Program-made: the position numbers and the translations under genes
Notes under the pieces: generated by a model
The model's database searches: none
What the model was told of the DNA's origin: nothing
Seen by the model: the letters and a program-made list of their open reading frames with translations, nothing else
Source of the DNA: an uncultured Vampirovibrionales bacterium
Lineage (GTDB): Bacteria > Cyanobacteriota > Vampirovibrionia > Vampirovibrionales > Vampirovibrionaceae
Assembly (NCBI GenBank): GCA_964387265.1
Contig: CAYLWC010000003.1
Location: 43,468 to 107,467, forward strand
Direction of reading: 5' to 3'
Length of the DNA stretch: 64,000 nt
In this document: in pieces, positions 7,343 to 63,866 of the stretch
Layout: each line of letters opens with the position of its first letter
How positions within the stretch are numbered: position 1 is the stretch's first letter

Positions 7343-7612
7343 CCCGCTAAAACACACAACATGAATTCAGCGGCCTGAAGTAAGCGGGTCGCTGATTGGG
7401 CGAACTGAAACGGCTAGAGATGTCCCCTGGTGTCTTCCAGCTTATCCCGTTCATAGCGGGCATTTCTGCGTGTGGGTTTGAGGGTGGGATGGTAAGAAAA
7501 TAATTGTCTTTGTAAATAAATGTAAATATAAAAGGGATTTCGATCAAATATCCGAAGTATATATTTTTTATTTAAGCGTAGGGATGTTAAACAAAAAATG
7601 AGGGATAAAGGT

Positions 7613-31672: not shown

Positions 31673-31709
31673 AGGGTGGGTTCCTTTTTGTAGAGCTTTA
31701 CTTGGCGTT

Positions 31710-33551: not shown

Positions 33552-33756
33552 GATGTTTGTTTCTCTTCTTTTCCTATTACGCATGGTTTCGGCGGTTTAT
33601 TTATTTCGCTGAAGGATATCCGGGCTCTTTTGTTACAAATCAGTAACATTTAGGTAAAATGGGATCAAAAAAATAGGCCCATGCCCTGTTATGGTCGAGA
33701 CAAGCGCCTATTTTTTCCACTGAGCGATCTTATGGGATCAAAATAGAATGCAAAAG

Positions 33757-34350
33757 TTATTCCGGCTTGGTGGGTTTATCGTGACCTTTTAACTGAAGAC
33801 CGCTGTTCGTTTCTGCAATGCCCTGTTCCAGAAAATCCACTGGTGGTTTGTATGGGGTCCCTCGCAGTACCCGTTGCTGGATTTCATAACGGACCCTGGC
33901 TAGAAATTCCTCAACGTCCCGAGTTCCTCTGGAAATATAGAGCGTTGTAATTTCGGCCACATCTTCAATAGAGGGATCAGATTGAAACTGATAGCAGGAT
34001 TTAAGGTATTCCTGGATATAACTTACCAGCGACACGATGTGATCGGCCATAGAATCCTGGTTTTCTTCAGACAAAATATACAGGTAATTCATTGCTTTAT
34101 GAAGCTGTGGATTTTTGTCGTATTCCCTGCGCTTGTTTTTTGACTTGTGCAATCCCAATACCTTGTCAGCTCCCAGGGTTTTAAAGGAGTTGACCTTTTC
34201 ATTAACACAAAACTCCTTGTTAGCCAGGATCATAATACCCTCGCTCAAGATGGACTGAATTTCATCCGGCAGGATGATCATCAGTTTGACAGATTGGGAG
34301 AGTTTGGGATGCCGATCATACCAGCGTTTGGGGGGGACAAAGTTATTCAT
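33757..34350 (-). CDS. Hypothetical protein
   Basis: 197 aa, no TM and no recognisable domain. Upstream of the Flp-like cluster on the same strand. Confidence 0.5.
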   Translation of the reverse strand: MNNFVPPKRWYDRHPKLSQSVKLMIILPDEIQSILSEGIMILANKEFCVNEKVNSFKTLGADKVLGLHKSKNKRREYDKNPQLHKAMNYLYILSEENQDSMADHIVSLVSYIQEYLKSCYQFQSDPSIEDVAEITTLYISRGTRDVEEFLARVRYEIQQRVLRGTPYKPPVDFLEQGIAETNSGLQLKGHDKPTKPE

Positions 34351-34452: not shown

Positions 34453-35256
34453 CTAAGCGTCCTGAATGTAAGCCTGCATGGTGCTAAGCGCATGCTCAGC
34501 CCGTTGGAGCTCCCGCCCGAGGTAAGCCGCATGATCCAGCCTGGAGATAATCCCTTGTTCAATGGCGGGAAAGTATAATTCGGCGGCGCGCTTGCCTTCG
34601 ATGATGGTTCCAAGAACGCCTTTATTATTATAGTGCTCCAGTATAATCCGGCTTCGGACGTGATCCACGTAGATAACAAAATACCCGCAGGGATCCAGCA
34701 CAATATGATCAGGCGCCTCTCCCTGAATGGGTTCGACCTGTTGGCTTGGGAGAAAGGCTTCTGCTGGGCCAGGCGCCTCAGCGCGACATTGACGGACTCG
34801 CTCCAGAACCTTTTCCACTTCATTGCACCCAACCATGTCGATCACGTCAACGTACTCCCGGAAATGGGCAATAGCCTCACTGGAAAGATTTTTAATAATG
34901 GGACGCTTCCCCTTGGCGCCGATAATTCGCCCGCTGGTATCAATGCCGTTTTTGGCCAAGGCCAGAAAAGATTGTCCCGGTAAGTGACCAATGGCCTGTT
35001 GTCCGTCCGTGCCGCAAAGCAAGATGAACCGGATGCTGGGGTTACTGAGGGCGTAACTGATAATTTGCTCAATCCCCAGGTTTTCTGTGTGCAATGACCC
35101 CACAACCACGCCCTGGAGTTCCTCTTCCTTCATCAGCTGATCCCGGAGCTCGTCATTGGTTAGTGTGCAGATGGCTAATGGTTGTGTATCCTGGGCCAAA
35201 TCGCCCAGAAACGACAGTTGGCGCTCATGGTGAGAGGGGGAGATGGGGTCAGACAT
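34453..35256 (-). CDS. MtrA-like (tetrahydromethanopterin S-methyltransferase subunit A homolog, corrinoid-binding) plus DUF4346 protein
   Basis: Recalled methanogen MtrA is collinear with TENLGIEQIISYALSNPSIRFILLCGTDGQQAIGHL...RIIGAKG (from memory: [36 protein letters not shown]...RIAGALG). A conserved His sits at the cobamide-ligand position. C-terminal DPCGYFVIYVD matches DUF4346. Confidence 0.55.
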   Translation of the reverse strand: MSDPISPSHHERQLSFLGDLAQDTQPLAICTLTNDELRDQLMKEEELQGVVVGSLHTENLGIEQIISYALSNPSIRFILLCGTDGQQAIGHLPGQSFLALAKNGIDTSGRIIGAKGKRPIIKNLSSEAIAHFREYVDVIDMVGCNEVEKVLERVRQCRAEAPGPAEAFLPSQQVEPIQGEAPDHIVLDPCGYFVIYVDHVRSRIILEHYNNKGVLGTIIEGKRAAELYFPAIEQGIISRLDHAAYLGRELQRAEHALSTMQAYIQDA

Positions 35257-35326: not shown

Positions 35327-37360
35327 TTACGGGGTGACTGAAGGGGTGTTTTTCAGAGTGTGCCGATAATGCTCCAGCTTCCTCACCAAATCGGGATGGT
35401 GTTGAAGCACATCCGGCCTCTTGGCCTTCAAGGCGGTTAACAGAACTTCAGGAAGGTTGAGAGCTTCATTTCGGGTTAATTTTTCAAAGTAGTCCTGTTC
35501 AAACGTGTTGGATAGACGGAGTGACCAGTTTTGATCGCCGCCTGTTCCCGGCTTGTTGTATGTTTCCCGAATCCCGAAGAAGTCCGGGAAAAAGATTTGT
35601 ACGTGTTGGGAGGGGCTGGCAAAGAGTTCAGCCAGCTTTGCGACCAGAAAGCGGTGGGAATCTTGAAGCAGAGACTGTATGAAATTACCACGGGCATTTA
35701 CATCCGGCTCCAGATCTTCGGCTAGGTATTGGGCATGGGTTTGAGCCTGGCCGTTTTGCCATAGCCGATCGATCCAGTTTCTCAGGGGCTCATTATCATG
35801 GGTTCCCGCCATAACCCAATGCTTGGCCGGGACATTTTTTCCCCGATACAAATGATCCGGCTTCTGGGGATCCACAAACTGGGTTACGCGAACTCCGCTT
35901 AAATCCAGCTGTTCCAAGACCGCCTTGACCGGGTTGGTCAGGGTACCCAAGTCCTCACAGATAATGGCGTCTTTATCCAGTCCTTGTGCCTGGGCAGCCG
36001 CGATGACAATGTTCAGCAGATCTCCGTAACGCTGAACCTGCTCCGGGGTAAGGTGCTGGACTCGACGCTCATCATCCGGCCCGACGGCATGATTGAGGTT
36101 GCTCGGGTCAATTTTGCTGAAGGGATGAAGGTCTGGGTGTTCAGGGGACGAGAACAATCTGCCCGCGCCGGATTCCGGTCGGGGAGACTGCCCGGCACGA
36201 TAGACCCAAGGGTCGATAAGACCAATAATATGATCAATTCGCACACCGCCTGGATTTTCCAGAAAGATTTTCTCAAAAAGGGTTTTGAGCAATTCGCCAG
36301 CGGGACCGAGGCTGCCATCCGGCTGAAATAGCTTGGCAGGATCTAACACCGGGAAGCCCCACGCTTGCCCGTCTTGAGAAAAATAATCCGGGGGAGCCCC
36401 TAGCTTATAGCCGTCCAGAAACAACGCCTGGTAGGCCCAAACATCCCGATCGGAAAAGGCAACCTGACGATCGGCAATAAGATTCATGCCTGTCTGTCGG
36501 GCAAAAGCTTTCATCTCTTCTTTCTGAGCAAAGGCGATAAACTGGCAGAACTCGTAGAAGGCGATATCATCGGCATGTTGTGTCTTGATTTCCTGAATTC
36601 GGGCTTGAGTGGCCTGTTCTTCCTGGGCATTGCTAGGACTGTACAGGCGTTTATCCAGCTCACTGGGCCAGATGGGCCAGTAGTCGTTTTGGTGGTGAAT
36701 CGAAAGCGCCTCATACAGGCTATCCCGTTCCAGCCAGGCTTGGTTTTTCAGCCGGAACGCCTGGAAGTCGCGCTCCAGTTTATTAAGTGCGTCCACGTCC
36801 GTTTGGGGTAAGCGTTGCAAGTTCTGGCGCTTTTGCTGATAGGTCTGGAAGGATTCTCGTAACGCCCGTTCCTGCGCTCGGTAGATATAGCCGTAAGCGG
36901 TCCGAGGCTTACCGGCGTGGGGTGGCTGTTGGGGGGTATTGCGGACAATGTCATCCAGGGTCTGGGTACTTAAAATCCCAGCCCATTTGGGGTCATTCGC
37001 CAACATGGCCAGATCCACAAACAGAGGGTTGTTGGAAAAGGAGGTGCTAGTATAGGGGGAAGCGTCAATGGCCTTGGTTTTTCCTCCTGGACCTAGCTGA
37101 ACACTGTTAAATCCCATGGTTTTCAGAAAGTTAAACAGGCGTTTGGCCCCCTTTGAATTGGGGGAACCGATGCCGGTGTCTTCCCCCGGCTCTGACGGGA
37201 AGCTGGCCCCATGGATGATCATGGCCAGGTTCTTTTTACCCAGCAGACTTAAGGTGTCCTCAATGGTTTTTTGATACTCGCTCAGCTCGTTGGGTTGTAA
37301 GGCCCGGCCGAATTTTGCTTCGGGGGAGGTGGCTGAAATAGAGCTTGGGGTCGATGACAT
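35327..37360 (-). CDS. malQ: 4-alpha-glucanotransferase (amylomaltase, GH77)
   Basis: IHGASFPS...GIGSP N-terminal signature and GH77 catalytic blocks. Start placed at ATG 37360 with a CAGGAGCC RBS. Confidence 0.85.
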   Translation of the reverse strand: MSSTPSSISATSPEAKFGRALQPNELSEYQKTIEDTLSLLGKKNLAMIIHGASFPSEPGEDTGIGSPNSKGAKRLFNFLKTMGFNSVQLGPGGKTKAIDASPYTSTSFSNNPLFVDLAMLANDPKWAGILSTQTLDDIVRNTPQQPPHAGKPRTAYGYIYRAQERALRESFQTYQQKRQNLQRLPQTDVDALNKLERDFQAFRLKNQAWLERDSLYEALSIHHQNDYWPIWPSELDKRLYSPSNAQEEQATQARIQEIKTQHADDIAFYEFCQFIAFAQKEEMKAFARQTGMNLIADRQVAFSDRDVWAYQALFLDGYKLGAPPDYFSQDGQAWGFPVLDPAKLFQPDGSLGPAGELLKTLFEKIFLENPGGVRIDHIIGLIDPWVYRAGQSPRPESGAGRLFSSPEHPDLHPFSKIDPSNLNHAVGPDDERRVQHLTPEQVQRYGDLLNIVIAAAQAQGLDKDAIICEDLGTLTNPVKAVLEQLDLSGVRVTQFVDPQKPDHLYRGKNVPAKHWVMAGTHDNEPLRNWIDRLWQNGQAQTHAQYLAEDLEPDVNARGNFIQSLLQDSHRFLVAKLAELFASPSQHVQIFFPDFFGIRETYNKPGTGGDQNWSLRLSNTFEQDYFEKLTRNEALNLPEVLLTALKAKRPDVLQHHPDLVRKLEHYRHTLKNTPSVTP

Positions 37361-37428
37361 GGCAGGGCTCCTGAATATGGGGGGCAACGGTGATGTTAGC
37401 ATTGGTTTAATTTTTCTCTGTAATTACC

Positions 37429-38228: not shown

Positions 38229-38846
38229 ATGCGAGTGAATTCCGCACCCACTGTTTTTCCGGGTAACAAGATCGGCAGCAGCGAGGTCGGCAGCAAGGTC
38301 GCAAACCCTGCTACAGCGCAGCAACCAGTTCTGGCAACCAAGTCCAATCAGGCAGAAGGGGATCAGGTTCTGTTCACTGGCTTGAAAGATGACTTGAAGG
38401 CAAAATGGGCTGCTTTCAGAGCTGAGCTGAGCCCTGGGGACGCCCCGGAAGCAGCGCTTCAACGGCAAAAGCAGCGGGAAGCCGCTTTGGAATTGCAGCG
38501 GGTTCAGCAACGCCACCGGACGCTGGTTGTCGCCAATGCTGAGGCTAATGTTTACGCTCAACAAGCAAAGCGTGTACTGCAAAAAGGGATAGCGGCTCTG
38601 GAAAAGGCAGTTCAGCAATCTCAGGAAGCTGAAAATCGGGCTGATCAGATTCGGACCAACGCCGGGGTTACCCTGTCTGAAATTGATCAGGCACACCAGG
38701 CTGAGTTAGACGCGCTGCAGGAGCAGGCTAAAATGTTGACCGAGCAATCCAAAAAACTCTCCCAAGCCTTGGTGGGCGATGACTCTACCAAGCGTGAGAT
38801 TGCAAAAGCCCAAGAAACCCTGAAGCAACTGAAGGGTGAAAAGTAA
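38229..38846 (+). CDS. Coiled-coil hypothetical protein
   Basis: AAGGGG RBS. Ala/Gln/Glu-rich heptad-like sequence throughout. Confidence 0.5.
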   Translation: MRVNSAPTVFPGNKIGSSEVGSKVANPATAQQPVLATKSNQAEGDQVLFTGLKDDLKAKWAAFRAELSPGDAPEAALQRQKQREAALELQRVQQRHRTLVVANAEANVYAQQAKRVLQKGIAALEKAVQQSQEAENRADQIRTNAGVTLSEIDQAHQAELDALQEQAKMLTEQSKKLSQALVGDDSTKREIAKAQETLKQLKGEK

Positions 38847-41828: not shown

Positions 41829-44800
41829 CTAGGGGTAGCTGGGCAGATAACTTGGCAGGTAGGGGGTGTCAATTTCAAAGAGGTGGAAACGGCCTGGCCC
41901 CAGGTCTACCTTCAATTGGTTTTCACCACGGATAAAGTGACTGGAGCGGCCGTACGGCAAGGATAAATCTTTCAAGGATTGAGTCTGACGGAACCCTGGA
42001 ATATGAAGGGTATTGCTATGACGAGCATTTACATCTTTATTGGCAACCACCAGCAAAGTTTTACCATTGAGATGTCGGGCGAAAGCAATGATCTGGTTGT
42101 TTTCCGCGTTTTGTACCGGGACGGGGATAAACAGACCTTTGCTCAGAACATCCTGGTACTGTTTCCGGGTAGATAACATATGCTTGAGGAAGATTCCAAT
42201 TTCTGGATGGTTTCCTTTCGGGCGCTTGGCGAAGTTAAAAATGTCGAAATGTCCTGAAAAACCTGTTGTAAAACCATCTAAAATATAAGGGTTGGTCAAG
42301 GGCTGCGTTGCCATTAGGCCCGAGGCGAGGAAGGACATAGTGGTGCCTCCATTGGTCATCAGGGCCGGATCATCATGGGTGAGGAAGGAGCCGATAAAGG
42401 ATTTTCCGCTCCCTGCCCGGTTAAACATCTGATAGCCATCTTTCAGGTATTGCATATACTCATTGGCGTTGCGCATCTTATGGAAGATGTGGAATTGGCC
42501 ATAGATGGAATCAAACCCACTTTTCAGCAGTCCTTCCGGGACGTCCCGGGGGATATTTTCCATGGGGGAGGCGTCCTCCTCGGTGTAGCTTTCAGCCAGC
42601 CACCCCAGGTGTGGGTACTTGCTTGTAAAGTGTTGCCAGAACCACAGGGGCCGAGCGCGGGCTACATCGACCCGAAAGCCATCCACTCCGACTTTATTGA
42701 CCATCAAGTCAAAAAAGTCTGCATAGTATTTCACCAGGGCCGGGTTGGTTTCAAACATGGCAATATCAATCCAGTTGGCCGGCGTTTTCAGGTTTCCGTT
42801 TCGATCCCTGGCAATCAGGTCCGGGCGGGCTTGGGCCAGATCAATGGAGGCGCAACTGGGGACATCTGCCATCACATGAATCCCTCGCTTATGCGCTTCC
42901 TGAACAAAAATACGGGCTTCATCCAGAACACTGAGCCTATTCCCTGGTGTATCATATTCTGGGTTGAGTTCCAGGTATGAGGCCGGGGCATAGACACTAC
43001 CCGCTTCCCCGAGACGTTTTTGATCTCCAGGTGGGTGGATGGGAAGAAGGTGAATAGTATTCACGCCCAGGTCTTTCAGTTCATCCAGTTTGGAAATGGC
43101 CGAGAGAAACGACCCGCTTTCCCCATGGTTAAATGAGATACGGCCATCGTTATTCTTGTCTTCGGCGCCAAACGTCCGAAGATGCAAAGCGTAGATAACG
43201 GCCTGGTTATTTTTAAAGAGATTTTTGAGTTGGTTTTGCCACGGATAAGGCGGACGTGGGGGCATGGACTGCATAACCGGCGTAGGCTGTATGACCCGGC
43301 TTGCGGGCTGGGAGGGATAAGATCCGTAATAAGGTCTATAATAAGGGTTTATTCCAATTCCAGGAGTGGTTGTAAACGGTCGTTGCGGAATGGCGCTAGG
43401 CTGACTCCAGCCAAACTTGGGCTGTGATGTTGGCGGAGGAGTGGCGGCGGGTTGATTTGTGGCGGGTTTTGGCGCCCCACGACGGCCCACGAAAAATTGG
43501 GTATACAACATGGTTGCCAGTAGCATGCCACCACCCAGATAGCCAATAATTCTTTTTTGCCAGAGTGTTCTGAGTTTGGTGTCTTTGAGGGCGCTCAGCA
43601 AATGCTGGCTTGGGGAAGCGCCCAGTCGGTTAAAGGCTTTGCCAAACTGGCCCTGGTTAATCAATTGGCGGGCTTCCTGGTATAACTGCTCGTTACCCGC
43701 CAGTTTCTTGGCTTGTTCCACTTGCCCCTTTTCTACCAGGCTTTGGATCTCTGGTAGCCCAGGCTTATCCATTAGCGCCTTGAGTGTTTGAACAGTGGGT
43801 TTACCCTTATCAAGTTCTTGGAGAAGAGCCTCGTAATGGCTGACCGTTGCCCTGGCGTTTGTGATTCGCTCTTCAATCAGTTGTTGTGCATTGGCGTGTA
43901 TTGACTTATCCAGCTGAATCCCCTGTTTTTTGAGAAGTACAGACGCTTCTTCGGATAAATGGCTCAGGAAAACCCGTTGTTTTTTTAGGTATTGTTGCAG
44001 CTCCTGACGCCGAGAAGCCTGCTCAGCTTGCCCCAGGGTTTCAAAGTGGCTCAAAAGCGTTTTCTTTTGTTCATGAGCCGGGGCGTTGACAATATCCTGT
44101 ATACTAAACGCAGTATTAAGGCCGGTTTTATTAACCATGTTGACCCCAAAACCTTTCCACCATTGGGAAATCTTGGAGTTTGGAATCTCTCCCACCAGCT
44201 GCCTGACATGGTGTTGGACGTGGTGGGTGAGTTTTTGAGGATCCCGGGTATGGGAGGCCCGGAAAAAGTGGTACATGGTATTCATCCGGTTTAAAAGGTG
44301 GATTGTCGGTTGTTGTAATTGGTCACAAAGTAGCCCTGAAATCACTGGTGTGGCAGGGCCTGCAACCAACATCCACCAGGTCTTGGACTGGGTGGCAATT
44401 TCCCGAATGCGTTCTTCCGTAATTTCTCGGCGGTTGGGGAGATGGCGAGGTATTTTCAGTTTGTCAGCGATACGAATAATCTCATAATCTGGTATCAGGT
44501 GCAGGGGGAGGTACTTGGGATCCTTGTAGAGATTATGTCGTTCCTTGTTGGTGTTGATATAGTCTTGATTCAGGTTCACGCCGGTACGACCCCGAACCAG
44601 TCCATTAATAATTTTGGGGGTGGCGGCCATGGCGCCAAACCAACTTAGAAAACCCAGATATTCCCCAACGCCAAAGACGCGCCGAGTCAGGCCAAACGTT
44701 GCCAGGGTCGCTATGCCCAGACCGGCTCCTCTCTTCAGATTATCATCCAGGATGGCCAGATTGTTATCGCTGATGGGCTTTGGGCCAATGTCGGTTAGCG

Positions 44801-44909
44801 TGGAGGCCACGCGGAGCTGCGTACTGGCAAAATCCTTGAACGTTTTGGGTGGGGCCAGGTGAGCATAGGGAGGAGACACGTTACTTTGGGAGGAGGTCAG
44901 GAAGGTCAT
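41829..44909 (-). CDS. Membrane-anchored GH13 alpha-amylase fused to an uncharacterised N-terminal (about 470 aa) domain
   Basis: C-terminal GH13 catalytic domain with GVDGFRVDVA (nucleophile), WLAESYTEE (acid/base) and FLTHDDP. TM helix IIGYLGGGMLLATMLY and a Pro-rich linker. The N-domain is homologous to the upstream 351 aa protein. Confidence 0.8.
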   Translation of the reverse strand: MTFLTSSQSNVSPPYAHLAPPKTFKDFASTQLRVASTLTDIGPKPISDNNLAILDDNLKRGAGLGIATLATFGLTRRVFGVGEYLGFLSWFGAMAATPKIINGLVRGRTGVNLNQDYINTNKERHNLYKDPKYLPLHLIPDYEIIRIADKLKIPRHLPNRREITEERIREIATQSKTWWMLVAGPATPVISGLLCDQLQQPTIHLLNRMNTMYHFFRASHTRDPQKLTHHVQHHVRQLVGEIPNSKISQWWKGFGVNMVNKTGLNTAFSIQDIVNAPAHEQKKTLLSHFETLGQAEQASRRQELQQYLKKQRVFLSHLSEEASVLLKKQGIQLDKSIHANAQQLIEERITNARATVSHYEALLQELDKGKPTVQTLKALMDKPGLPEIQSLVEKGQVEQAKKLAGNEQLYQEARQLINQGQFGKAFNRLGASPSQHLLSALKDTKLRTLWQKRIIGYLGGGMLLATMLYTQFFVGRRGAPKPATNQPAATPPPTSQPKFGWSQPSAIPQRPFTTTPGIGINPYYRPYYGSYPSQPASRVIQPTPVMQSMPPRPPYPWQNQLKNLFKNNQAVIYALHLRTFGAEDKNNDGRISFNHGESGSFLSAISKLDELKDLGVNTIHLLPIHPPGDQKRLGEAGSVYAPASYLELNPEYDTPGNRLSVLDEARIFVQEAHKRGIHVMADVPSCASIDLAQARPDLIARDRNGNLKTPANWIDIAMFETNPALVKYYADFFDLMVNKVGVDGFRVDVARARPLWFWQHFTSKYPHLGWLAESYTEEDASPMENIPRDVPEGLLKSGFDSIYGQFHIFHKMRNANEYMQYLKDGYQMFNRAGSGKSFIGSFLTHDDPALMTNGGTTMSFLASGLMATQPLTNPYILDGFTTGFSGHFDIFNFAKRPKGNHPEIGIFLKHMLSTRKQYQDVLSKGLFIPVPVQNAENNQIIAFARHLNGKTLLVVANKDVNARHSNTLHIPGFRQTQSLKDLSLPYGRSSHFIRGENQLKVDLGPGRFHLFEIDTPYLPSYLPSYP

Positions 44910-45964
44910 CAGCTCCGTCCTCCCTGCGCGCTAAGGAACTTTTGAAACACCGAAGGTCGGAATGGATCGATTGTACCGTTTTTTCCGGCCAGGTACATCG
45001 GTGGGGGGGATTGATAATTCTTCTTTTCCAAGACCCTGAACATTTGGGCAAAGCCCAAGGCAGCGCCCACACCCAGAACACCCAAGACGCTTTTCCGAAG
45101 TCGAGGGGCCGCTTCCTTGGCGTGACCACTCAAGCGATCCCGAAGTCCGGTCTCCACTTGACTGTAAAGAACGGTTCCGGCATTTTTGACCCTGTTGGCA
45201 ACGTCCCCGGCTTCGGCGCCAAAGAGGGTCTTCTTGAGGATGTCTTGTCCACCGAGCAGGCGAGCCCAGGCGTCGCTTCGGGCGATATAGCCCGCACTAA
45301 CCGCCGCCAGCAGGTTCCCCAATAAGAGCTTAATAGCCCGAGAGGAACTGACCACGGAATTGAGTTGTTCCTGTACCGCCCCTTTGTGATCGGCCACACC
45401 AGGGGGGAGGCCCATTTTCTCCTGGATTTCCCGGAATTGTTTGTTGTTTAAAAGTTCATATTTGGGGAAATCCGCACTGGCGAATATTTTTTCAATGGAG
45501 CCATCGGGTTTTTTGTAGAGTGCGTTGAGATCGACCCCGTATCGCCATTTATAGACCTTATTGACCATGCTGTTAATCAGATGAATGCTGGTGTAGTACA
45601 AACCCACCCCGATACCTTGCCGCAATGCGGTCACTTTCCCGCCGCTGCCTGCGGCCATAAAACTTAGGGTCAGGACCGTGCCGCCCAGGTAATAGGGAAT
45701 GGTGGTGGTTCGCATGAAATCCGAAAAACTGAACGAGGGATCCCCCTTTAGTCCTTTATAGACACTTTGGGGGAGTTTGATAAAAGTATTTTTCGCGTGA
45801 AATAAGAGTTTTTCAACGGGGGAAAGCTGAATCTGCTTATCTTTGGGGAGCTTGGTAGGGTCAATGTAGGAGGGTGTAAGATCAAGGGAATAGACCGGCA
45901 TGGTCTGCTGGCGGTGGGCCGGAAATGGCGTTGGGATAGTGGCTTTGAATGTTACAGGATCCAC
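44909..45964 (-). CDS. Membrane protein paralogous to the N-terminal domain of the adjacent GH13 fusion
   Basis: GTG start with a GAGGGG RBS. Stop overlaps the downstream ATG (ATGA coupling). Conserved blocks YGVDLNALY/TGVNLNQDY and DFPKYELL/LIPDYEII. Confidence 0.6.
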   Translation of the reverse strand: MDPVTFKATIPTPFPAHRQQTMPVYSLDLTPSYIDPTKLPKDKQIQLSPVEKLLFHAKNTFIKLPQSVYKGLKGDPSFSFSDFMRTTTIPYYLGGTVLTLSFMAAGSGGKVTALRQGIGVGLYYTSIHLINSMVNKVYKWRYGVDLNALYKKPDGSIEKIFASADFPKYELLNNKQFREIQEKMGLPPGVADHKGAVQEQLNSVVSSSRAIKLLLGNLLAAVSAGYIARSDAWARLLGGQDILKKTLFGAEAGDVANRVKNAGTVLYSQVETGLRDRLSGHAKEAAPRLRKSVLGVLGVGAALGFAQMFRVLEKKNYQSPPPMYLAGKNGTIDPFRPSVFQKFLSAQGGRS

Positions 45965-46440
45965 AACTGTGTTATCCCCTCGTGTTGGTCATATTAATGC
46001 CCTACAAGGTTTCAGACTGTATAGCGCTAACAACAGAAGAAAGATGGTCAATTTCTGAATGTGATCAATTGATTCAAAAATAGCGTATTTGTTACAGGGG
46101 TTGTTTTTTAAAGGAATCAAACAATTAGAACAATGAGGTTGTCCTGGGACGACGTTCTGGTGAGTTTGCCTATATAAGCATAAAGGGGGAATTGCATGAA
46201 GAGGTTGCTGTAAAATATATATGTACTTGATATCTCTTCCTGTAGCGTTTTGTAATAAATGGGGTATTTCCCGAATGTCGGCAGTATAATGCCAGGCAAA
46301 CAGGGATTCTGACCTTTTACTCTCAACGGACTGAAGCCACGACTCATAGAGAGCTGGTCAAGACCATGATGTCCTGTCGGTTTTAGATCGCATTCGATCG
46401 CAACTTTTGAAATTGATGATCTTTCATATCAGGAAAGGAA

Positions 46441-49400
46441 ATGGTGAAAGAAATACCCATGTTGGGAGTTCACTGGAACAATCAATTGCGGTCCCCTGTC
46501 CGGTTTTCCGGGTACCGGCTGACGCCGTCCGGGAATGCCCAGTTGTATCTGCCCGGCCATGAAAAGTCCCGAGTCCAGGCGGATGTGATTTTTCCTGACG
46601 GTAAAAAGGATGTGGTCCAGTTTAACCGGGATGGCCAATACTGGCGCGCCAAGCGAGAGCTGCCTCTGGGCAGTCTGTATCAGATCCAGGTGGATGGAAA
46701 ACCCGAACTGGATTTGTTGGAAACCCGCGAGTTTTGTAACAAAGCCTATAATGTAACTTCGCCCCTGGAACGAACGGCTCCGAAGAAAAGCGTGGTGATT
46801 GCCGATCTGTTTCAAAATGGCGCCGTTGCCGATGAGTGTCTGCGGGCTTACCAAAAAACAGGCATCCCGGCTCGCAACCACTTTAATGACTTTGGTGGGG
46901 ATGAACGGGGCCTGAAATCCCTGGTGCCTCTGTTGCAGGAGGCCGGATATTCGGCGCTGCTCTTTAAACCTTTTATTGGTGGGGATAATTTATCTTCCCA
47001 TGGCTATTGGACCGTGGATCCCTTTGCCCTGAATAAAAGTTTTTCCAACAAGAAGGCGTTTAAAAACTCGCTGAACCTGCTGTTAAAGTCTGGGATGAAG
47101 CCATTTGCAGATGGCGCCTTTGTTAATCAGGGATTAAACGGGATTCAATACCTGGCCAATCTTCATTATGGATTCCGCTCTCCCTTTTGGGATTGGTTTA
47201 CTTTTGAGGAAACCAATCAAAAAGGGCAGTCTCAGTATCCACGAAACGCATATGAAGGGATGACCCTGGGAATCCTTCCTACCAAAACCGATCCGATGTC
47301 CCGTATCCGCTTTGTGGATTATGACCGGTTCGATATTCGGGTGCTGAACGATCCGGCGCAACCTGAATATAGCCCTAAAAAACCGACATTTATAGAACTG
47401 TTTAACCCGCAAACTGCTGATCAACTGCTCCCTCAGACAAATCGGGATGGAAAGATTCTGAGCAGTGAGGATTCCGTGCAGACCTACCGTTTCCCAGTCC
47501 CGGTCAAAGAGCTGATGGAAAAACAGGAGCGGCTTGAGCAATTAAAGAAAGCCCCGGATTATACGGATCGGACCCGGAAGCAACTGCTGAGCGAGTGGAA
47601 GCAGTTTCGCCTGGGTCCACCGGCTGAAGATGATTCCAGCCTGAAGTGGGATGGCCAGATTGATGTGGCCAAAATGAACATGCGGAACCCGGAAGTCCAG
47701 AAGTTTGTGGAAGATTCCATGGTGTACTGGACCCGCTTTGTCAAAAACACCTATACTGAAACCGTGGCAAGCGCCTTACAGAAAGCCCGGCTGAAATACC
47801 CGGACAAGTCGCCGCTGGAACTGGTTCAGCAGATTACCGCCACCACACCCCAGGATGCCAGGATGCCGGGGAAGGTGTTACCACCCATTGATTTCCCCCA
47901 ATTGGAAACCCTGACGGAAGCGGATGTTGAAAAAGCCCTTACTTCAGCCGTATTGTCCGATACGAAGCAGCCAGGCCATGCGTTGGCAGAAACCATCTTG
48001 AAGCAATATCCCTTGCCTGTATTGCCGATGCCCCCTTTGTTCAAAGCCGCCTTGACTTATCCAGAGCTGGCCAAGGCGCTAAGCCGACCTGCCGCCCCCT
48101 GGTTGATGCAGGTTATTGATTTTGCCTTTAAACCGCTGAAAATGCTGGCGGAGGTGGCGCCCAAATGGCGACGCCATATCGATTCATGGGTCGATTTTGT
48201 GTTTGAGAAGCTGAAACAATTCTCATTTGAGGGAATGCTTGCCAATAAACTGGAAAGGAGCATTCAGCATCTCTCGAGAGACGCTCAGCAAAAGCTTCGA
48301 TCCCAACCTGTTCGGGAATTGATTACGGAAACCGTTGCCCAGACGCTCTACCTGCAACTGTTAACCGGGCAAACCAGTACAGTCCCTGATAACGTGGAAG
48401 AAGGTTTTTACCGGACGGTGCCGGATTATATCGCGCAAGCGGATCCCCAGACCGCCGCCAATCTTCTTCCCCGTTTTCTGAAGGACCGGCTAAAAGCCTT
48501 AAAGACCAATCAAATCGCCCAATTGATTGAGAGGCAACTCCGGGATCTCGAGCCGGATATGGTTGCGGTGGCGTCCGCGGTGTTGGATAAACGGGAATTT
48601 GGCCTGAACTGGCGGATTGATGCCGCCAAGGACGTGGGAGACATGGACCTGGTACGGAACGCCCCGGCTGACAAACGAAAAGATCTCTTCAGGCAGGAAA
48701 TGAGTTTTGTTGAGGGTTTTTGGAAACAACGGGGTGAGGCCATTCGTAATGTTTCCCCGAAAACTGCGATTATCGCGGAATTAACGGACTTTGAAGCCTT
48801 GTCCGATGACAGCACCGCTCGGAATATCTCCCGTCGGCTGTTTGATGTGTTTAATGGCATTCCCAACATGCGATACATGTATAGTTCTTTGGCCAAGGCG
48901 GTGCACATGGTTCAGAATCCCGCAGAATTTGGCGGCGATTTACAGATGAAGCCTTCGGGTTTCCTGAATGAAGTCAAGGGAATGAGCCAAAGCGTGCCGT
49001 TGCCTGCACTGCGTCAGTACCAGAACATGAGCTCCAGCCATGACTACCCGACGGCCAGCCATACGTTCCTGATGAATCCCGATATTTTTAATATGGATTA
49101 TATCCGCTGGTGGGGTATTCAAGAGTACTTTAATGAAGCGGTCAGCGAGCTGCTGACCAAGCCCGGATTCCAGCGGGAACGGGAGCTACTCAGGCGTGAA
49201 GGGGTTGAGAACTTAAAAGAAATCTTTGCCACATTAAACACGGCGGCGGAGAAAGCCCATCAGCAAAAACAGTTTTCCCCGTCTGTACAGAATTACTTCT
49301 CCAAGGGCAGTAAGCAACGGGAAGAGCCTGTGCCGCTGGATGCCAAACAGAACTTTGTGGATGAGTTGTTTACGCTGGTCACACCGCAACAGTTGGGGGT

Positions 49401-50397
49401 AGACCCCAGGACGTTTAACGCGTTACGGACGGTCCTCTCCGATAGAATATTGGAGCCCAGCGAGGCGCGCGCCATGCGAGGTGTGATTCAAAACGGCATG
49501 CTGCGCTTTGATTGGACCGGGTATGCCAGGGCCATCAATACACAAGTCCCTCCAAAGCAGCTTCAAGAGGGTTTCTTTTCCCTGTTTTCAGAAGCCATCC
49601 AACGATGCGTGCAAGAGTATGGCAGTCACTTTGGGTATCAGCCCCTTTATGAGGCGCTACATCATGTGCTGGAGAATCTGGATGATACGGCCCTGAAGCA
49701 GCTGATACCGGGGGAAGCTCCTACCAGCCTGGTAAAACAGACCCTGCATGAGCAGTTGTTTGATCAGCTGCAAAAGCCCGTGTTGGAGGATAAGTTCTTG
49801 AGAAAAGTGGCCTTACAGGTGGGTGTGCCCGGTAATCCTTCGATTTATGAAATCGTACCACAGGGTGGTAGTGAGAGCCGCAAAAATAAATACGTACAGA
49901 ACCGTCCCCTGATACGGTACGACTGGCTGAAGGAAAGGCCGCTGTATCAGGATTATCATCAAAAGCTTTCCAGGCTGCTTCACTTACGAAAGCAAGTGCC
50001 GGTGCTCAATGATGGGATTGTGTTGCCGCTTCAAACGCAAGATGTGGATGGGATCGTGCCGCTGGTTCGGGATAATGGGCGGGAACAAGCCATTATGCTG
50101 GTGAACACAGGAAAACCCTCGTTGCCGGAAGATTACCCCCACTGGCGGAATCTGACCGGGAATGATGCTCAGTATCCCGAAATCCAAACGACCCAAAAGG
50201 TCAAAAAGAACTTCAAGTTGAACCTCTCTGCGATACAGCCGCAACCGGAAAAAACAGTGTACCGGGATGTGGAAACCGGGGAACGGTTTAAAGTGGATAA
50301 AAACTACCAGCTGGTCTCTCTGGATAACCCCGGACGGGGCATGGACATCGAGGTCTACCGCTGTCTGGTTCGAGAAGACGTGGCGGGAAATAGCTAG
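46441..50397 (+). CDS. Giant (1318 aa) highly divergent GH13-like alpha-amylase-family protein with large insertions
   Basis: AGGAAAGGAAATGG RBS. N-terminal GGDERGLKSL...FKPF...HGYWTVDPFALN and FADGAFVNQG resemble GH13 regions. SSSHDYP resembles region IV. C-terminal LRKQVPVLNDG...LVNTG resembles the amylase C-domain. Confidence 0.65.
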   Translation: MVKEIPMLGVHWNNQLRSPVRFSGYRLTPSGNAQLYLPGHEKSRVQADVIFPDGKKDVVQFNRDGQYWRAKRELPLGSLYQIQVDGKPELDLLETREFCNKAYNVTSPLERTAPKKSVVIADLFQNGAVADECLRAYQKTGIPARNHFNDFGGDERGLKSLVPLLQEAGYSALLFKPFIGGDNLSSHGYWTVDPFALNKSFSNKKAFKNSLNLLLKSGMKPFADGAFVNQGLNGIQYLANLHYGFRSPFWDWFTFEETNQKGQSQYPRNAYEGMTLGILPTKTDPMSRIRFVDYDRFDIRVLNDPAQPEYSPKKPTFIELFNPQTADQLLPQTNRDGKILSSEDSVQTYRFPVPVKELMEKQERLEQLKKAPDYTDRTRKQLLSEWKQFRLGPPAEDDSSLKWDGQIDVAKMNMRNPEVQKFVEDSMVYWTRFVKNTYTETVASALQKARLKYPDKSPLELVQQITATTPQDARMPGKVLPPIDFPQLETLTEADVEKALTSAVLSDTKQPGHALAETILKQYPLPVLPMPPLFKAALTYPELAKALSRPAAPWLMQVIDFAFKPLKMLAEVAPKWRRHIDSWVDFVFEKLKQFSFEGMLANKLERSIQHLSRDAQQKLRSQPVRELITETVAQTLYLQLLTGQTSTVPDNVEEGFYRTVPDYIAQADPQTAANLLPRFLKDRLKALKTNQIAQLIERQLRDLEPDMVAVASAVLDKREFGLNWRIDAAKDVGDMDLVRNAPADKRKDLFRQEMSFVEGFWKQRGEAIRNVSPKTAIIAELTDFEALSDDSTARNISRRLFDVFNGIPNMRYMYSSLAKAVHMVQNPAEFGGDLQMKPSGFLNEVKGMSQSVPLPALRQYQNMSSSHDYPTASHTFLMNPDIFNMDYIRWWGIQEYFNEAVSELLTKPGFQRERELLRREGVENLKEIFATLNTAAEKAHQQKQFSPSVQNYFSKGSKQREEPVPLDAKQNFVDELFTLVTPQQLGVDPRTFNALRTVLSDRILEPSEARAMRGVIQNGMLRFDWTGYARAINTQVPPKQLQEGFFSLFSEAIQRCVQEYGSHFGYQPLYEALHHVLENLDDTALKQLIPGEAPTSLVKQTLHEQLFDQLQKPVLEDKFLRKVALQVGVPGNPSIYEIVPQGGSESRKNKYVQNRPLIRYDWLKERPLYQDYHQKLSRLLHLRKQVPVLNDGIVLPLQTQDVDGIVPLVRDNGREQAIMLVNTGKPSLPEDYPHWRNLTGNDAQYPEIQTTQKVKKNFKLNLSAIQPQPEKTVYRDVETGERFKVDKNYQLVSLDNPGRGMDIEVYRCLVREDVAGNS

Positions 50398-50466: not shown

Positions 50467-51807
50467 ATGGCACAAGGCACCATGGTGGATTCCATCACCT
50501 CAACGACCGCCGAATCGACGTACGGCTCGCAGAAGGCAACGACCGCTGTTCGTCGGATGTCGATGCTCCAGCTCTTGAATTTAAGTATCGGCTTTTTGGG
50601 CATTCAGTTTGCCTGGGCCATCCAGATGGGACAGATGAGCCCGTTATTAGAGCGCTTGGGCTCTGACCCCCAGTGGATTGGGATTATCTCCTGCGCGGGC
50701 CCTGTGACCGGGGTGCTGGTTCAGCCGATTATCGGGTCCTTGAGTGATCAATCCAAAATTGCCTTTGGCCGCCGTCGCCCCTTCTTGCTGGCCGGAATGA
50801 TCTGTACGATTTTAAGCTTGATCCTGATGCCCAACTCCACCGAACTCTGGATGGCCGCGGTGCTACTCTGGATTCTGGATGCCAGCATCAACGTTTCTCA
50901 AGGCCCCTACCGGGCGATGATTTCCGATGTGGTGCCGAAAGCCCAGCAAGCGACGGCCTTTTCTCTCACCAGCCTGACTATTGGGCTGGGGTCAGTCATT
51001 GCTTTCCTCATTGGCTTTGCCATTAACTCTATGCACAACCTGTTTTATTTGGGGGCCAGCGCCATGCTGGTGGCCATGATGTGGACGATTTTAACCACCA
51101 AGGAAGAAAACCCCAAGCTGCTGGCGCTCAGCGGGGAGCAGGCCACGGAATCTACCGGGAATTTCTTTATCAACATGTTTAAAGGCATTTTCTCGATGCC
51201 GAAAGAAGGCTTAAAGCTCTGCCTGGCCCATAGCTTTACCTGGTTCGGCCTGATGTGCCTGTTTGTCTTTTTCTCGGTCTACGTGCCTCATCATGTCTTT
51301 GGCGCCGCCGATTCCAGTAGCGAGCTGTATCAGAAGGCCGTTCAGTGGGGGTCTATCTGTTATGCCGTCTTGAACGCCGTATGCTTTCTCTTCTCTTTCG
51401 CCATCAGCAAGCTCTGCGCCCTGACTTCCAAAAAAGCGGTCCATACGTTCGGTTTGCTGTGTATGGCTGGCAGCATGCTGGGGATGTTTTATATTTCTAC
51501 CCCAGAGATGGCAATGGTCCTGATGGGCCTGATGGGGATTGGCTGGGCGACATCGCTCTCGATTCCCTTTGCCCTGCTCTCGGAGCATATCCCCAACGGC
51601 AAAGAAGGGGTGTTGCAAGGGACCTTTAATATCTTTGTGGCCGCCCCTGGGGTGATTAGCAGTCTGGTTGTAGGGAACATCGTTCAGGCCTATGACGGCA
51701 ACTATGCGGTGGCCATGGTGATTGGCGGAGGCTCCATGCTGGTGGCGGCGCTGCTCCTGCAATTTGTCAAGGAAGCCCGTCAGGAAAAAGCCCCACTTAT
51801 CGCCTAG
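50467..51807 (+). CDS. MFS transporter of the GPH/sucrose-transporter (SLC45/SUT-like) family
   Basis: LLNLSIGFLGIQFAWAIQ...GPVTGVLVQPIIGSLSDQ...FGRRRPFLLAG closely parallels plant SUT and SLC45 N-terminal motifs. 12 TM. Confidence 0.8.
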   Translation: MAQGTMVDSITSTTAESTYGSQKATTAVRRMSMLQLLNLSIGFLGIQFAWAIQMGQMSPLLERLGSDPQWIGIISCAGPVTGVLVQPIIGSLSDQSKIAFGRRRPFLLAGMICTILSLILMPNSTELWMAAVLLWILDASINVSQGPYRAMISDVVPKAQQATAFSLTSLTIGLGSVIAFLIGFAINSMHNLFYLGASAMLVAMMWTILTTKEENPKLLALSGEQATESTGNFFINMFKGIFSMPKEGLKLCLAHSFTWFGLMCLFVFFSVYVPHHVFGAADSSSELYQKAVQWGSICYAVLNAVCFLFSFAISKLCALTSKKAVHTFGLLCMAGSMLGMFYISTPEMAMVLMGLMGIGWATSLSIPFALLSEHIPNGKEGVLQGTFNIFVAAPGVISSLVVGNIVQAYDGNYAVAMVIGGGSMLVAALLLQFVKEARQEKAPLIA

Positions 51808-52179: not shown

Positions 52180-54333
52180 TTAAACCGCTTGAATCACCTG
52201 GATGATCTGAACGCGCCAGCTTTCGCCGGGGGCCAGATCCAGCTTCCAGTTGGGATACAAGGCGGTGGATTGAAAGACCTTTTCAAACCCGGCTTCCGAT
52301 TGGGAAACCGTCTCAATTGGGAAGCGCCACAGATCTGTCGGGGTGCTGAATCGCAGTTGGTAATCAATTCCCATCCACTCGTCTTTCAAGCCAATGGCGG
52401 AAACCTGCTTCAGGGTCCCTTTTGAGGCCATTTTCTTGCTTCTGAGTACGGGCGGGGCTTCTTCTAAAACCGCTGTCCCACCGGCAGGAACGGTATTGGT
52501 ATCCGGCTCCGGCAGATAAAAATAGCGATCTGGCGCATCGGGGGCCAGCATATTCACGTTAAATTCCGGGGCGAACCACAGAGACACCACTTCCGTGGAA
52601 TCATTGGTGAGGGTGTAATCAATGGTGGTGGTAGCGCTATCCACCTCCACGGTGAGCCGCTTTTGGACGGTGACCGGGTGGGCTTTTCCATTTATCACCA
52701 CATCTCCGGTCCGGGTGAGGGTGACCTGATTGCCCTCATGCTGGGTCTCATAGGGCTGGTTGATAAATTGCCCCTGTTCTTCGTATTCCACATTAAACAA
52801 AGCATCCAGCGTGGTGTCTGGCCCCAGGAAGTGATCCAGCAAGCTGCCCCGGCGGTGCCAATCGTACCGCAGAAGCTTTTCCAGCCCTTTTTCTTTGACC
52901 ACCACCCGCTCATGGATATTTTTGACCGATCCGTCATCGTCATCCTCATGCAGTGCCAGGTGCAATTTGTCATGGTAAGACTCATACCGCCGGGCCAGGG
53001 TATCCAGTAGGTTAAAGTGCCGGGGACGGAAGTCTAATTCAAAGAGCATGCCCCCTTCAGCGGGATCTAGGTATAAATTTTGGGTGTCTGATTCCACCAG
53101 GACTTCGGCCTGGCCGTCACAGTCGAGATCCCGTTCTTTCATTGTAAAGAATGAATCTCCCCGCAAGACGGTGTCGGCTAAATTTTCCGCCTGGATCAAA
53201 TGCTGGTAGTTGGCGGTTCTTAAATTGGTTAAATACAAGCCGCCGAAGACGCCATGCCAGAAAATATCGTTAGATTGCCCCTGCCAGAGGTGATCCAGCG
53301 CCTCGGTCTTTTTCGGGCCTTCCGGCATCTTGCGGACTTTTTCGCTGACATACAGCATTTTCTTTTGCACGTTATTCGATTCCGGGTATTTCACCAGAAA
53401 ATGCCGCCAGAACCCCCCCCGGACAAAGCGTTGATTGGCTTCCGGGGTGTCTTTGAGAAATTGCTCAAAGGGGTTAATATGTTTCGCTGGCAAGGCCCAT
53501 TCCAGCATCTCGCTATAACTGGCCGTCGGCAAGTAAATCCGGCCAAAAGAGGGGACGTTTTGCACGTATTGCGATGGGGTGATGGTCTTGATCACCTCGT
53601 CGTTTTGTTCCAGGGCCGTAAAGAATTTATCCAGCCATTTTTCCGTATAAACGGCTTTATAAGTCCCCGGCCAGACGCCAAACTTCTCTCCGTCATCAAA
53701 ATAAATCCCGGCCCGTTCTCCGCTCTCTGTGGCCTGCTGAATGAGGTAATCCACCACCTCTTGCGGTTTGGCATAGGGGATCATGTAACGCAATTGCTTG
53801 CTAACCGGGAAGATGTCCACCATTTGGCCCATTTCTTCGGAGGTATAGCGGCCCAGCAGCTCTTCATCGTCCAGCCCCACTGAGTTAAAATGGGCGTCAT
53901 CCACGCAGAGGTATTTCACCCCGGCTTCTGCCAGGAATTTTACCAAATGGGGCTCCCAGACTCTTTCGGCTAGCCACATACCTTTTGGCGTTTGCCCGGT
54001 GAGTTCTTTCACCCGGTTCGTCAGCTTTTGAATCTGCCCCACTTTGTCTTTATCGGGAATAATGGGCAAAATCGGCTCATAAAACCCGCCAGTAAACATC
54101 TCGACTTGGCCCCGATCCACCAGGCGCTTGAGCTGCTCAATGAGTTCCGGGTGCTTCTCGGCAATCCAGTCCAGCAGGTAGCCGGTGTAATGCACGCTCA
54201 TCCCAATCCTGGGGTGGGCTTCCAGCACGTCTAAAAAGGGCTTATAGCACTTTTGATACGCATCCTCAATCACATGATCCCAGTTATCCACAGGCTGATG
54301 ATTATGAACACCCAGAAGCAGGTTGATGGTCAT
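52180..54333 (-). CDS. Glycoside hydrolase family 57 (alpha-amylase/4-alpha-glucanotransferase/branching-type)
   Basis: N-terminal GVHNHQP plus HYTGYLLDW...EMFTGGFYEPIL...WLAERVWEP, diagnostic for GH57. Confidence 0.85.
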   Translation of the reverse strand: MTINLLLGVHNHQPVDNWDHVIEDAYQKCYKPFLDVLEAHPRIGMSVHYTGYLLDWIAEKHPELIEQLKRLVDRGQVEMFTGGFYEPILPIIPDKDKVGQIQKLTNRVKELTGQTPKGMWLAERVWEPHLVKFLAEAGVKYLCVDDAHFNSVGLDDEELLGRYTSEEMGQMVDIFPVSKQLRYMIPYAKPQEVVDYLIQQATESGERAGIYFDDGEKFGVWPGTYKAVYTEKWLDKFFTALEQNDEVIKTITPSQYVQNVPSFGRIYLPTASYSEMLEWALPAKHINPFEQFLKDTPEANQRFVRGGFWRHFLVKYPESNNVQKKMLYVSEKVRKMPEGPKKTEALDHLWQGQSNDIFWHGVFGGLYLTNLRTANYQHLIQAENLADTVLRGDSFFTMKERDLDCDGQAEVLVESDTQNLYLDPAEGGMLFELDFRPRHFNLLDTLARRYESYHDKLHLALHEDDDDGSVKNIHERVVVKEKGLEKLLRYDWHRRGSLLDHFLGPDTTLDALFNVEYEEQGQFINQPYETQHEGNQVTLTRTGDVVINGKAHPVTVQKRLTVEVDSATTTIDYTLTNDSTEVVSLWFAPEFNVNMLAPDAPDRYFYLPEPDTNTVPAGGTAVLEEAPPVLRSKKMASKGTLKQVSAIGLKDEWMGIDYQLRFSTPTDLWRFPIETVSQSEAGFEKVFQSTALYPNWKLDLAPGESWRVQIIQVIQAV

Positions 54334-55492: not shown

Positions 55493-55567
55493 CAACCCTC
55501 CTTGACGTGGCGGTATATATTTTATCATACCAAGGATCCAGATAAATAACGGCTGAGCCGGTTAAAA

Positions 55568-63778: not shown

Positions 63779-63866
63779 GGGTTTTATGATAGCCAAGGCC
63801 AGCAGTAGAGTAAAGCGCAAGCGTAAAACATAAACTTTTTGTTACCCCCACGTCCGGCTTGAATGG

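Follow-up and report, generated by a model that had tools for sequence, protein, structure and literature searches.

The window analysed here is a stretch of 64,000 nucleotides (nt) from an uncultured Vampirovibrionales bacterium (contig CAYLWC010000003.1 of assembly GCA_964387265.1). Two overlapping genes on its minus strand encode a 351 amino acid (aa) protein, hereafter A, and a 1026 aa protein, B-C, in which an N-terminal module, B, is fused to a glycoside hydrolase family 13 (GH13) domain, C. These genes are a rare, derived, fused form of a three-gene operon, A-B-C, which is the conserved unit and occurs in the class Vampirovibrionia (Melainabacteria), in two of its orders at least. A and B belong to a new accessory protein family that is attached to a known kind of enzyme, and C can be described from its motifs as an atypical GH13 protein. 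A tentative model, in which A and B form a membrane scaffold for C, is proposed below.

A three-gene operon and its fused form

Both open reading frames, first recognized in a first-pass annotation made from the sequence alone, were confirmed on the minus strand: gene A (44909..45964; GTG start preceded by GAGGGG) and the fused B-C gene (41829..44909; ATG start). The stop codon of A and the start codon of B-C overlap, as that annotation had stated, but by one base, TGATG (junction AGC-TGA-TGA-CC), and not by the four-base ATGA that it had given. A GGGAGGA Shine-Dalgarno sequence internal to gene A lies 9 nt upstream of the B-C ATG and, together with the 1-nt overlap, makes the two genes look translationally coupled, which supports the proposal that A is co-expressed with a catalytically equipped GH13 protein. 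The product of gene A is 100% identical to a public protein (P0017) and a protein identical to the 1026 aa product is annotated in an NCBI record (125,918 bp contig).

The fused protein can be divided as follows (all coordinates on the minus strand). After a weakly conserved N-terminus, residues 17-183 (44361..44861) form the B core, which comparison of family profiles relates to A. It is followed by a helical spacer domain (residues 199-453; 43551..44315), whose length varies from ~255 to ~1000 aa among homologs, and by a C-terminal hydrophobic helix delimited by hydropathy (residues 454-475, IIGYLGGGMLLATMLYTQFFVG; 43485..43550), which is a putative membrane anchor placed just before the linker. 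This linker is Pro-rich (residues 476-560, i.e. 85 residues; 43230..43484) and is the counterpart of the low-complexity extension with which free-standing C proteins begin. The remainder (residues 561-1026; 41829..43229), assigned from Pfam, NCBIfam and PDB alignments, consists of the GH13 domain and a C-terminal beta domain. Hydrophobic helices are found at residues ~63-82, 78-105, 177-198 and then 454-475. The Pro-rich linker and the hydrophobic N-terminal segments (63-105, 177-198 and 454-475) described initially are indeed present. Protein A is predicted to be all-helical with four hydrophobic helices. Its residues 43-216 (45317..45838) make up the core held in common with B in the hhalign comparison of the two families, and its C-terminal hydrophobic helix (residues 288-314; 45023..45103), with a Kyte-Doolittle value of 1.66, is its most transmembrane-like segment.

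When the species genomes of GTDB were scanned with the B alignment, 14 loci were retrieved, all from Vampirovibrionales and including the type strain Vampirovibrio chlorellavorus NCIMB 11383, and the homologs bearing an organism label all come from non-photosynthetic cyanobacteria. Altogether, the related loci number 25, of which 20 belong to Vampirovibrionales and five are low-GC loci of Gastranaerophilales type. Some distant low-GC A-like proteins are labelled Candidatus Gastranaerophilales by NCBI, and one of the low-GC operons (L024) derives from such an organism. The order A-B-C is invariant in the Vampirovibrionales loci (20/20) and is also found in the low-GC operons (5/5), whose flanking genes are completely different. 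Since this order is maintained despite unrelated flanks, the conserved unit is the three-gene operon. The low-GC operons encode A proteins of 342-376 aa, B proteins of 859-1012 aa and C proteins of 574-580 aa. The association of A, B and a GH13 protein that the first-pass annotation had described at this one site therefore recurs in 25 related loci.

The fusion, which had been taken as the defining architecture, is rare among them. In 16 of the 17 loci that could be checked, B (~500-690 aa) and C (557-595 aa, GH13) are encoded by separate genes, which rules out the fusion as the ancestral or defining architecture. The ends of the separate genes overlap or abut, and the Shine-Dalgarno sequence of C lies inside the last codons of B. 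At the B/C junctions of L001 and L005-L007, a GGAGG ribosome-binding site of C is located within the final codons of B. B proteins end in a conserved Pro-Gly-Gly tail, probably because the ribosome-binding site of C overlaps the codons for it.

Fused B-C proteins were nevertheless found elsewhere (P0001, P0002/L003, P0195 and P0197). In a neighbour-joining tree of the GH13 domains (built without bootstrap), these proteins form a single clade and the window protein is placed among unfused relatives. Furthermore, the window protein has a Pro-rich linker that resembles the N-terminal extensions of free C proteins, whereas that of the other fused clade is short and charged. This placement and these differing linkers make two independent events likely, and the B-C fusion therefore probably arose twice. 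According to the Rosetta-stone argument, a recurrent fusion would indicate a common compartment and a common function for the C-terminal end of B and the N-terminal end of C.

Two other observations were made on the low-GC operons. In L022-L026, a motif (I/L)-x-N-Y-(A/L)-x-x-(L/V) is present both in the first dozen residues of B and in the N-terminal extension of C, with two copies in the C proteins of L024 and L025; it may be a candidate docking peptide. In addition, EF-hand-like proteins of 170, 629 and 627 aa, recognized by faint Pfam matches, are encoded directly after A-B-C (L023, 6048-6560; L024, 16033-19952).

The A/B family and the GH13 domain

A pairwise BLASTP comparison of A with the fusion protein gives an E-value of 4e-4 at 14% identity. 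Comparison of the A-family and B-family profiles by hhalign (alignments of 38 A-type and 15 B-type sequences) gives a probability of 97.1% with an E-value of 5.3e-11 over 165 columns (A 43-216, B 17-183), and an independent alignment of the distant Gastranaerophilales A-like proteins gives a probability of 93.7% with an E-value of 1.8e-7 against B. In the same way, a hidden Markov model built from A proteins only, searched against 1.84 billion representatives, retrieves 238 clusters at E <= 1e-3, which include B proteins (P0001, 1.6e-7). These profile comparisons indicate that A and the first ~170 residues of B are true distant paralogs. The paralogy proposed between A and the N-terminal region of B-C thus holds, but it is distant and concerns the N-terminal core only. 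One of the two motif pairings on which it had been based was mis-registered, as DFPKYELL of A aligns with DPKYLPLHL of B and not with LIPDYEII.

The core shared by A and B comprises a hydrophobic hairpin, a loop that carries the conserved GV(D/N)LN...Y beta-hairpin together with D(F)P(K/R)Y, and the first part of a third hydrophobic helix. Both proteins also end in a C-terminal hydrophobic helix, which comes after ~60 residues in A and after the 255-residue helical domain in B. The AlphaFold2 model of A has a predicted local distance difference test score (pLDDT) of 83.8, exceeding 90 across most of the hydrophobic helices, and a predicted template-modelling score (pTM) of 0.76, and it displays a small beta-hairpin at the conserved GVDLN motif. 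The model of A is thus a confident one, and that of B, with lower values (pLDDT 71.5, pTM 0.60), can still be used.

No match to the A or B module was found in Pfam or NCBIfam, and no weak Pfam match recurs across all the members of the A and B alignments. Searches of PDB sequences with the A and B profiles retrieved nothing beyond designed helices, and Foldseek comparison of the models with PDB gave no significant fold (best E-value 0.53). Therefore, none of the Pfam, NCBIfam, PDB sequence or PDB fold searches revealed a known family, such as a transporter or scaffold, that would explain the fusion. Likewise, literature searches on glycogen or GH13 in Vampirovibrionales or Melainabacteria, on amylases of Gastranaerophilales and on membrane-anchored GH13 enzymes retrieved no paper that describes the A-B-C operon or the A/B family. 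The genome paper of V. chlorellavorus mentions glycoside hydrolases in general terms only (PMC4451040). The claim that the architecture is novel can thus be kept insofar as no paper on this arrangement was found, but the fusion itself is a derived form of the operon.

The C domain shows a partial match to the Pfam Alpha-amylase family (PF00128, E-value 2.8e-8, above cut-off) and many sub-threshold matches to GH13 families of NCBIfam. Its best solved relatives are 4gkl (E-value 2.9e-23 over 363 residues) and 3dhu (9.9e-20), two enzymes that belong to the recently defined subfamily GH13_48 (PMC11239784). Alignment with 4gkl identifies D748 in DGFRVDVA as the nucleophile (42666-42668), E773 in WLAES as the acid/base (42591-42593) and D846 in THDD as the transition-state stabilizer (42372-42374), all three on the minus strand. 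These Asp, Glu and Asp residues are invariant across 18 C orthologs (56-67% identity), and such a triad, borne by a (beta/alpha)8 barrel, is what characterizes GH13.

However, the description of this domain as fully motif-intact was overstated. In the ortholog alignment, conserved region I of the window protein is DVPSCAS (42846-42866, minus strand) and the consensus D[VIL]PS[CA]AS is found in 18/18 orthologs, the canonical Asn-His being replaced (by Ser-Cys in the window). Asn-His is a common feature of the end of region I, and the His of this region is conserved across most GH13 subfamilies (PMC11239784). Other regions were also compared with GH13_48. In region II of this subfamily, the residue directly before the nucleophile is Cys in 81% of the members and otherwise Ala, Val or Leu (PMC11239784); it is Val in the window, which corresponds to a tolerated minority of GH13_48, and Val, Ala or Cys in the orthologs. 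Region VII of the window reads NPYILDGF, with Gly-Phe (Tyr or Ile instead of Phe in a few orthologs) where 4gkl has NGQ, and lacks the Gly-Gln signature of GH13_48. Region V, whose register is uncertain, reads IAMF-E(T) in the window and MF-(K/Q/E)-(N/D) in the orthologs, compared with L-[DN] in GH13_48 and F-D in the pairwise alignment with 4gkl. Judging from these motifs, C is an atypical, catalytically equipped GH13 enzyme that is closest to GH13_48 yet does not fit this subfamily.

Possible membrane association and role of the operon

The first-pass annotation had proposed a transmembrane helix in the fused protein. The hydrophobic segments exist but they are only marginally hydrophobic in the window protein. 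On a simple Hessa scale, a threshold of +3 kcal/mol recovers most transmembrane helices of the major facilitator superfamily (MFS) transporter, the SulP protein and the potassium channel encoded in the window and none in three soluble enzymes, and no A or B segment of the window passes this threshold. A and B might therefore be soluble or peripheral helical bundles, located for example on glycogen granules, that recruit C, their Gly/Ala-rich and moderately hydrophobic helices being the buried core of a hetero-oligomer. Several features of the family make this non-membrane scaffold quite improbable. The hydrophobic helices are not amphipathic, contain many small residues and small-xxx-small motifs, and are conserved family-wide. 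The C-terminal helix of B ranges from -0.4 to +3.9 kcal/mol across the family, in or near the range of the control transmembrane helices, with values of -0.4 to +3.5 in members other than the window protein and of -0.4 to +2.5 in many homologs. Moreover, basic residues before this helix (about five Lys/Arg in 16 residues) and motifs in the tail that follows it (GRDF(K/Q)P and GKxNxFNPDxY) are conserved, as would be expected of membrane anchors. By the same simple sum, the C-terminal helix of A is at +4.4 kcal/mol in the window and at +0.75 to +4.6 in other family members, and the first three hydrophobic helices are of marginal hydrophobicity across the family.

Neither A nor B has a signal peptide. 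The nine N-termini of free-standing C proteins that were read, by eye and by hydropathy rather than with SignalP, are polar or Pro-rich, without hydrophobic core, signal peptide or lipobox, and in none of these operons does C carry a transmembrane segment; it has a low-complexity N-terminal extension only. These data favour a cytoplasmic enzyme, and no positive support was obtained for the initial suggestion of a periplasmic GH13 domain that hands alpha-glucan to the envelope. In the fusion, an even number (four) of hydrophobic helices precedes the GH13 domain, and the fusion is viable only if B ends in the same compartment in which C begins. The most economical layout predicted from these features would therefore comprise four membrane helices, the GH13 domain being cytoplasmic together with the N-terminus and the conserved loop, and the helical spacer lying on the outer side.

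The role of the operon could then be viewed as follows. A and B, each with its Gly/Ala-rich hydrophobic hairpin, conserved beta-hairpin loop, third hydrophobic helix and C-terminal anchor helix, would assemble into a hetero-oligomeric integral membrane scaffold. The cytoplasmic C-terminal end of this scaffold would keep C on the inner side of the cell membrane. For most species, non-covalent docking of C via its low-complexity N-terminal extension is envisaged; in the window genome, loss of the stop codon between B and C would have turned this docking into a covalent tether. The complex would process imported alpha-glucosides or malto-oligosaccharides close to the membrane, or take part in glycogen turnover there. 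Such a job is likely given the neighbours of the operon in Vampirovibrionales, a giant GH13 protein and a sucrose/maltose-type MFS symporter (see below). That A and B constitute a membrane scaffold keeping C at the cytoplasmic face is held tentatively, its probability being judged a little short of even.

Several points weigh against this scaffold. All hydrophobic segments of A and B in the window are at +3.9 to +6.4 kcal/mol, compared with -3.4 to +2.9 for the control transmembrane helices. Positive-inside counts on the family alignments do not discriminate between topologies, because each helix has basic residues on either side. If the C-terminal helix of B were the only spanning segment, in the manner of a tail anchor, the fused GH13 domain would be located outside the cytoplasm. 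Any spanning anchor places the spacer and the GH13 domain on opposite sides of the membrane, and a four-fold variation in spacer length would then be surprising in a periplasmic domain. Since the region-I His is lost family-wide, C may not act on plain alpha-1,4-glucan. The B-C fusion of the window is known from one assembly only. Lastly, the scaffold presupposes a physical complex of A, B and C, which we infer just as we do membrane insertion, topology and substrate.

Some of these points would fit an extracytoplasmic amylase. Only the C-terminal helix of B would span the membrane (N-terminus in, C-terminus out), and the linker would expose the GH13 domain to the periplasm or at the cell surface for the digestion of external starch or glycogen from algal prey or the gut, the products entering through the MFS symporter. 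A and B would anchor, and perhaps export, an enzyme devoid of signal. This C-terminal helix is the sole segment with the hydrophobicity of a genuine transmembrane helix family-wide, the succession of a transmembrane helix, a Pro-rich linker and an enzyme is a typical surface-display layout, and a spacer varying from 255 to ~1000 aa fits the cytoplasm better than the periplasm. The ecology is also suitable, as starch-storing Chlorella is the food of V. chlorellavorus (PMC4451040) and the gut is the habitat of Gastranaerophilales. However, unfused C proteins have neither signal peptide nor transmembrane segment wherever their N-terminus was read, so that one would have to postulate export by a non-classical route. 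Furthermore, the giant GH13 protein also lacks a signal peptide, and the invariant free Cys of region I, near the active site, is more usual in cytoplasmic enzymes. An extracytoplasmic location thus appears somewhat unlikely. A broader proposal, according to which A and B would be a class-specific membrane channel, exporter or anchor for a signal-less GH13 enzyme and would move this enzyme or its alpha-glucan across the cytoplasmic membrane, is considered unlikely.

The presence of the operon in V. chlorellavorus, an algal predator, might also point to a role in predation. Being helical paralogs from one operon, both with weakly hydrophobic hairpins, A and B could be a bipartite alpha-pore or translocator pair (cf. 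ClyA, Hbl and YaxAB) that inserts into the membranes of prey and serves to deliver or position an enzyme for starch degradation. Two echoes of such toxins were found, both insignificant: ClyA ranks second in the Foldseek search (E-value 0.63, template-modelling score ~0.1-0.16) and Bacillus_HBL is matched in Pfam by 1/15 B proteins (E-value 0.012). A and B have neither a secretion signal nor significant sequence or structural similarity to any toxin family, and the operon is equally conserved in Gastranaerophilales-type gut Melainabacteria, which to our knowledge have not been described as predatory. For this last reason, a predation effector was rejected as the principal interpretation and is regarded as very improbable indeed.

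Genomic context and known systems

Gene A is separated by 476 bp (45965..46440) from a divergent gene on the plus strand that encodes the giant GH13 protein (1318 aa; 46441..50397). The intergenic region is presumed to be a shared promoter region, although its promoter-like matches do not exceed shuffled expectation and its short repeats are unconvincing; terminator-like matches after the operon are likewise not above shuffled expectation. In the giant GH13, region I reads DGAFVNQ, with Gln in place of His, an insert of ~495 aa separates regions I and II, and the catalytic residues are D727, E780 and D868. Its orthologs from ten Vampirovibrionales have 1278-1495 aa and retain the Asp, Glu and Asp of regions II-IV in nine cases; the ortholog of L005 has SPD in region IV, the His being replaced. 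The MFS transporter (50467..51807, plus strand), of the GPH sucrose/H+ symporter type (TIGR01301, E-value 2.8e-33, below the family cut-off), is encoded 3' of the giant GH13.

The linkage of these two genes to A-B-C is restricted to Vampirovibrionales, where it is conserved: the permease is ~60% identical in relatives and always lies beside the giant GH13, and both genes are back-to-back with A-B-C in 12 of the 20 loci. Five more divergent loci with a full upstream flank carry neither gene within 10 kb, and the remaining three are cut short upstream, two of them still showing the start of the giant gene. The window also encodes a GH77 4-alpha-glucanotransferase (35327-37402), a GH57 protein of amylase/4-alpha-glucanotransferase type with middle and C-terminal domains (52180-54333) and a GH9 cellulase with a CelD_N domain (62087-63820), all on the minus strand; they are not conserved in related loci. 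Immediately 3' of the operon, two loci of Vampirovibrio type, L001 (13633-16386, minus strand) and L005 (13752-16631, minus strand), carry a GT5/GT1 glycogen-synthase-like gene (917-959 aa) that has no counterpart at this place in the window. Together with the giant GH13 and the MFS transporter, the GH77, GH57 and GT5/GT1 genes place the operon within alpha-glucan or alpha-glucoside metabolism.

Elsewhere in the window, a 267 aa protein (34453-35256, minus strand) combines an MtrA-like domain (tetrahydromethanopterin S-methyltransferase subunit A, E-value 3.6e-34) with a pterin-binding DUF4346, which is unexpected in a melainabacterium. Other genes encode an 842 aa adenylate/guanylate cyclase with a CHASE2 sensor (28173-30701, minus strand) and a P-type heavy-metal ATPase with YHS and HMBD domains (22979-25468, plus strand). 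Six open reading frames of 197-863 aa have no Pfam match at the thresholds used, two on the plus strand (7598-10189 and 38229-38846) and four on the minus strand (30758-31966, 32733-33584, 33757-34350 and 54401-55528). Scans of the window for tRNAs and Rfam families gave no match.

No non-photosynthetic group is more closely related to oxygenic cyanobacteria than Vampirovibrionia. An algal predator and common inhabitants of the gut belong to this class, and hardly any experimental study has been devoted to it. As the operon remains intact across at least two orders of the class independently of its flanks, it probably matters for the carbohydrate economy of these bacteria. A and B, two of the three products, are without known relatives, and the third is a GH13 protein that misses a widely conserved residue. 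Working out this operon could thus define a new GH13 subfamily or specificity and a new membrane scaffold or transport family, and it could reveal a coupling of sugar uptake to alpha-glucan metabolism or an attack on the starch of prey or of the host diet. Should A and B prove to be a dedicated membrane machine, they would represent a new route for the export of glucan or enzyme in diderm bacteria, and the Ser-Cys of region I would mark a new GH13 specificity.

The operon products can be compared with several known systems. The giant GH13 resembles neopullulanases/cyclomaltodextrinases: the N-terminal part of its barrel, up to region I, aligns with TVAII (1jf6; E-value 1e-8) and the Asp, Glu and Asp of regions II-IV are recognizable. 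It differs from this type by its insert, by the Gln that replaces the region-I His and by its total size of 1280-1500 aa. C shares with the maltogenic amylase AmyB of Thermotoga neapolitana (4gkl) and the Lactobacillus plantarum amylase (3dhu) a compact A/B/C GH13 layout, the Asp/Glu/Asp residues and a region II of GxR(V/C)DVA type, but it is set apart from GH13_48 by DVPSCAS in region I, by GF instead of GQ in region VII and perhaps, given the uncertain register, by F-E instead of L-[DN] in region V (PMC11239784). Both of these enzymes are soluble proteins that are neither accompanied by nor fused to A/B-type modules.

Other systems hold a GH13 protein at a membrane. SusG and lipoprotein pullulanases, which are lipid- or signal-anchored surface amylases of bacteria, are retained near sites of sugar uptake; they carry a lipobox or signal peptide for Sec-dependent export, and their action is extracellular. 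No signal peptide is present on C, whose partners A and B are members of an unrelated, undescribed family. In rBAT and 4F2hc, the SLC3 heavy chains of the heteromeric amino-acid transporters of eukaryotes, a GH13-fold domain is tethered to the membrane, beside a transporter, by the helix that immediately precedes it; this domain is extracellular, the tether is a single transmembrane helix, the heavy chain is disulfide-linked to an SLC7 permease and 4F2hc is devoid of catalytic residues. No SLC3 sequence relationship appears among the PDB matches of the C domain. The window fusion is similar in layout, as its GH13-fold domain comes directly after a hydrophobic helix and its gene lies near that of a transporter. 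Unlike SLC3 proteins, it retains an intact catalytic triad, and its tether is a 475 aa multi-helix module that has a free paralog.

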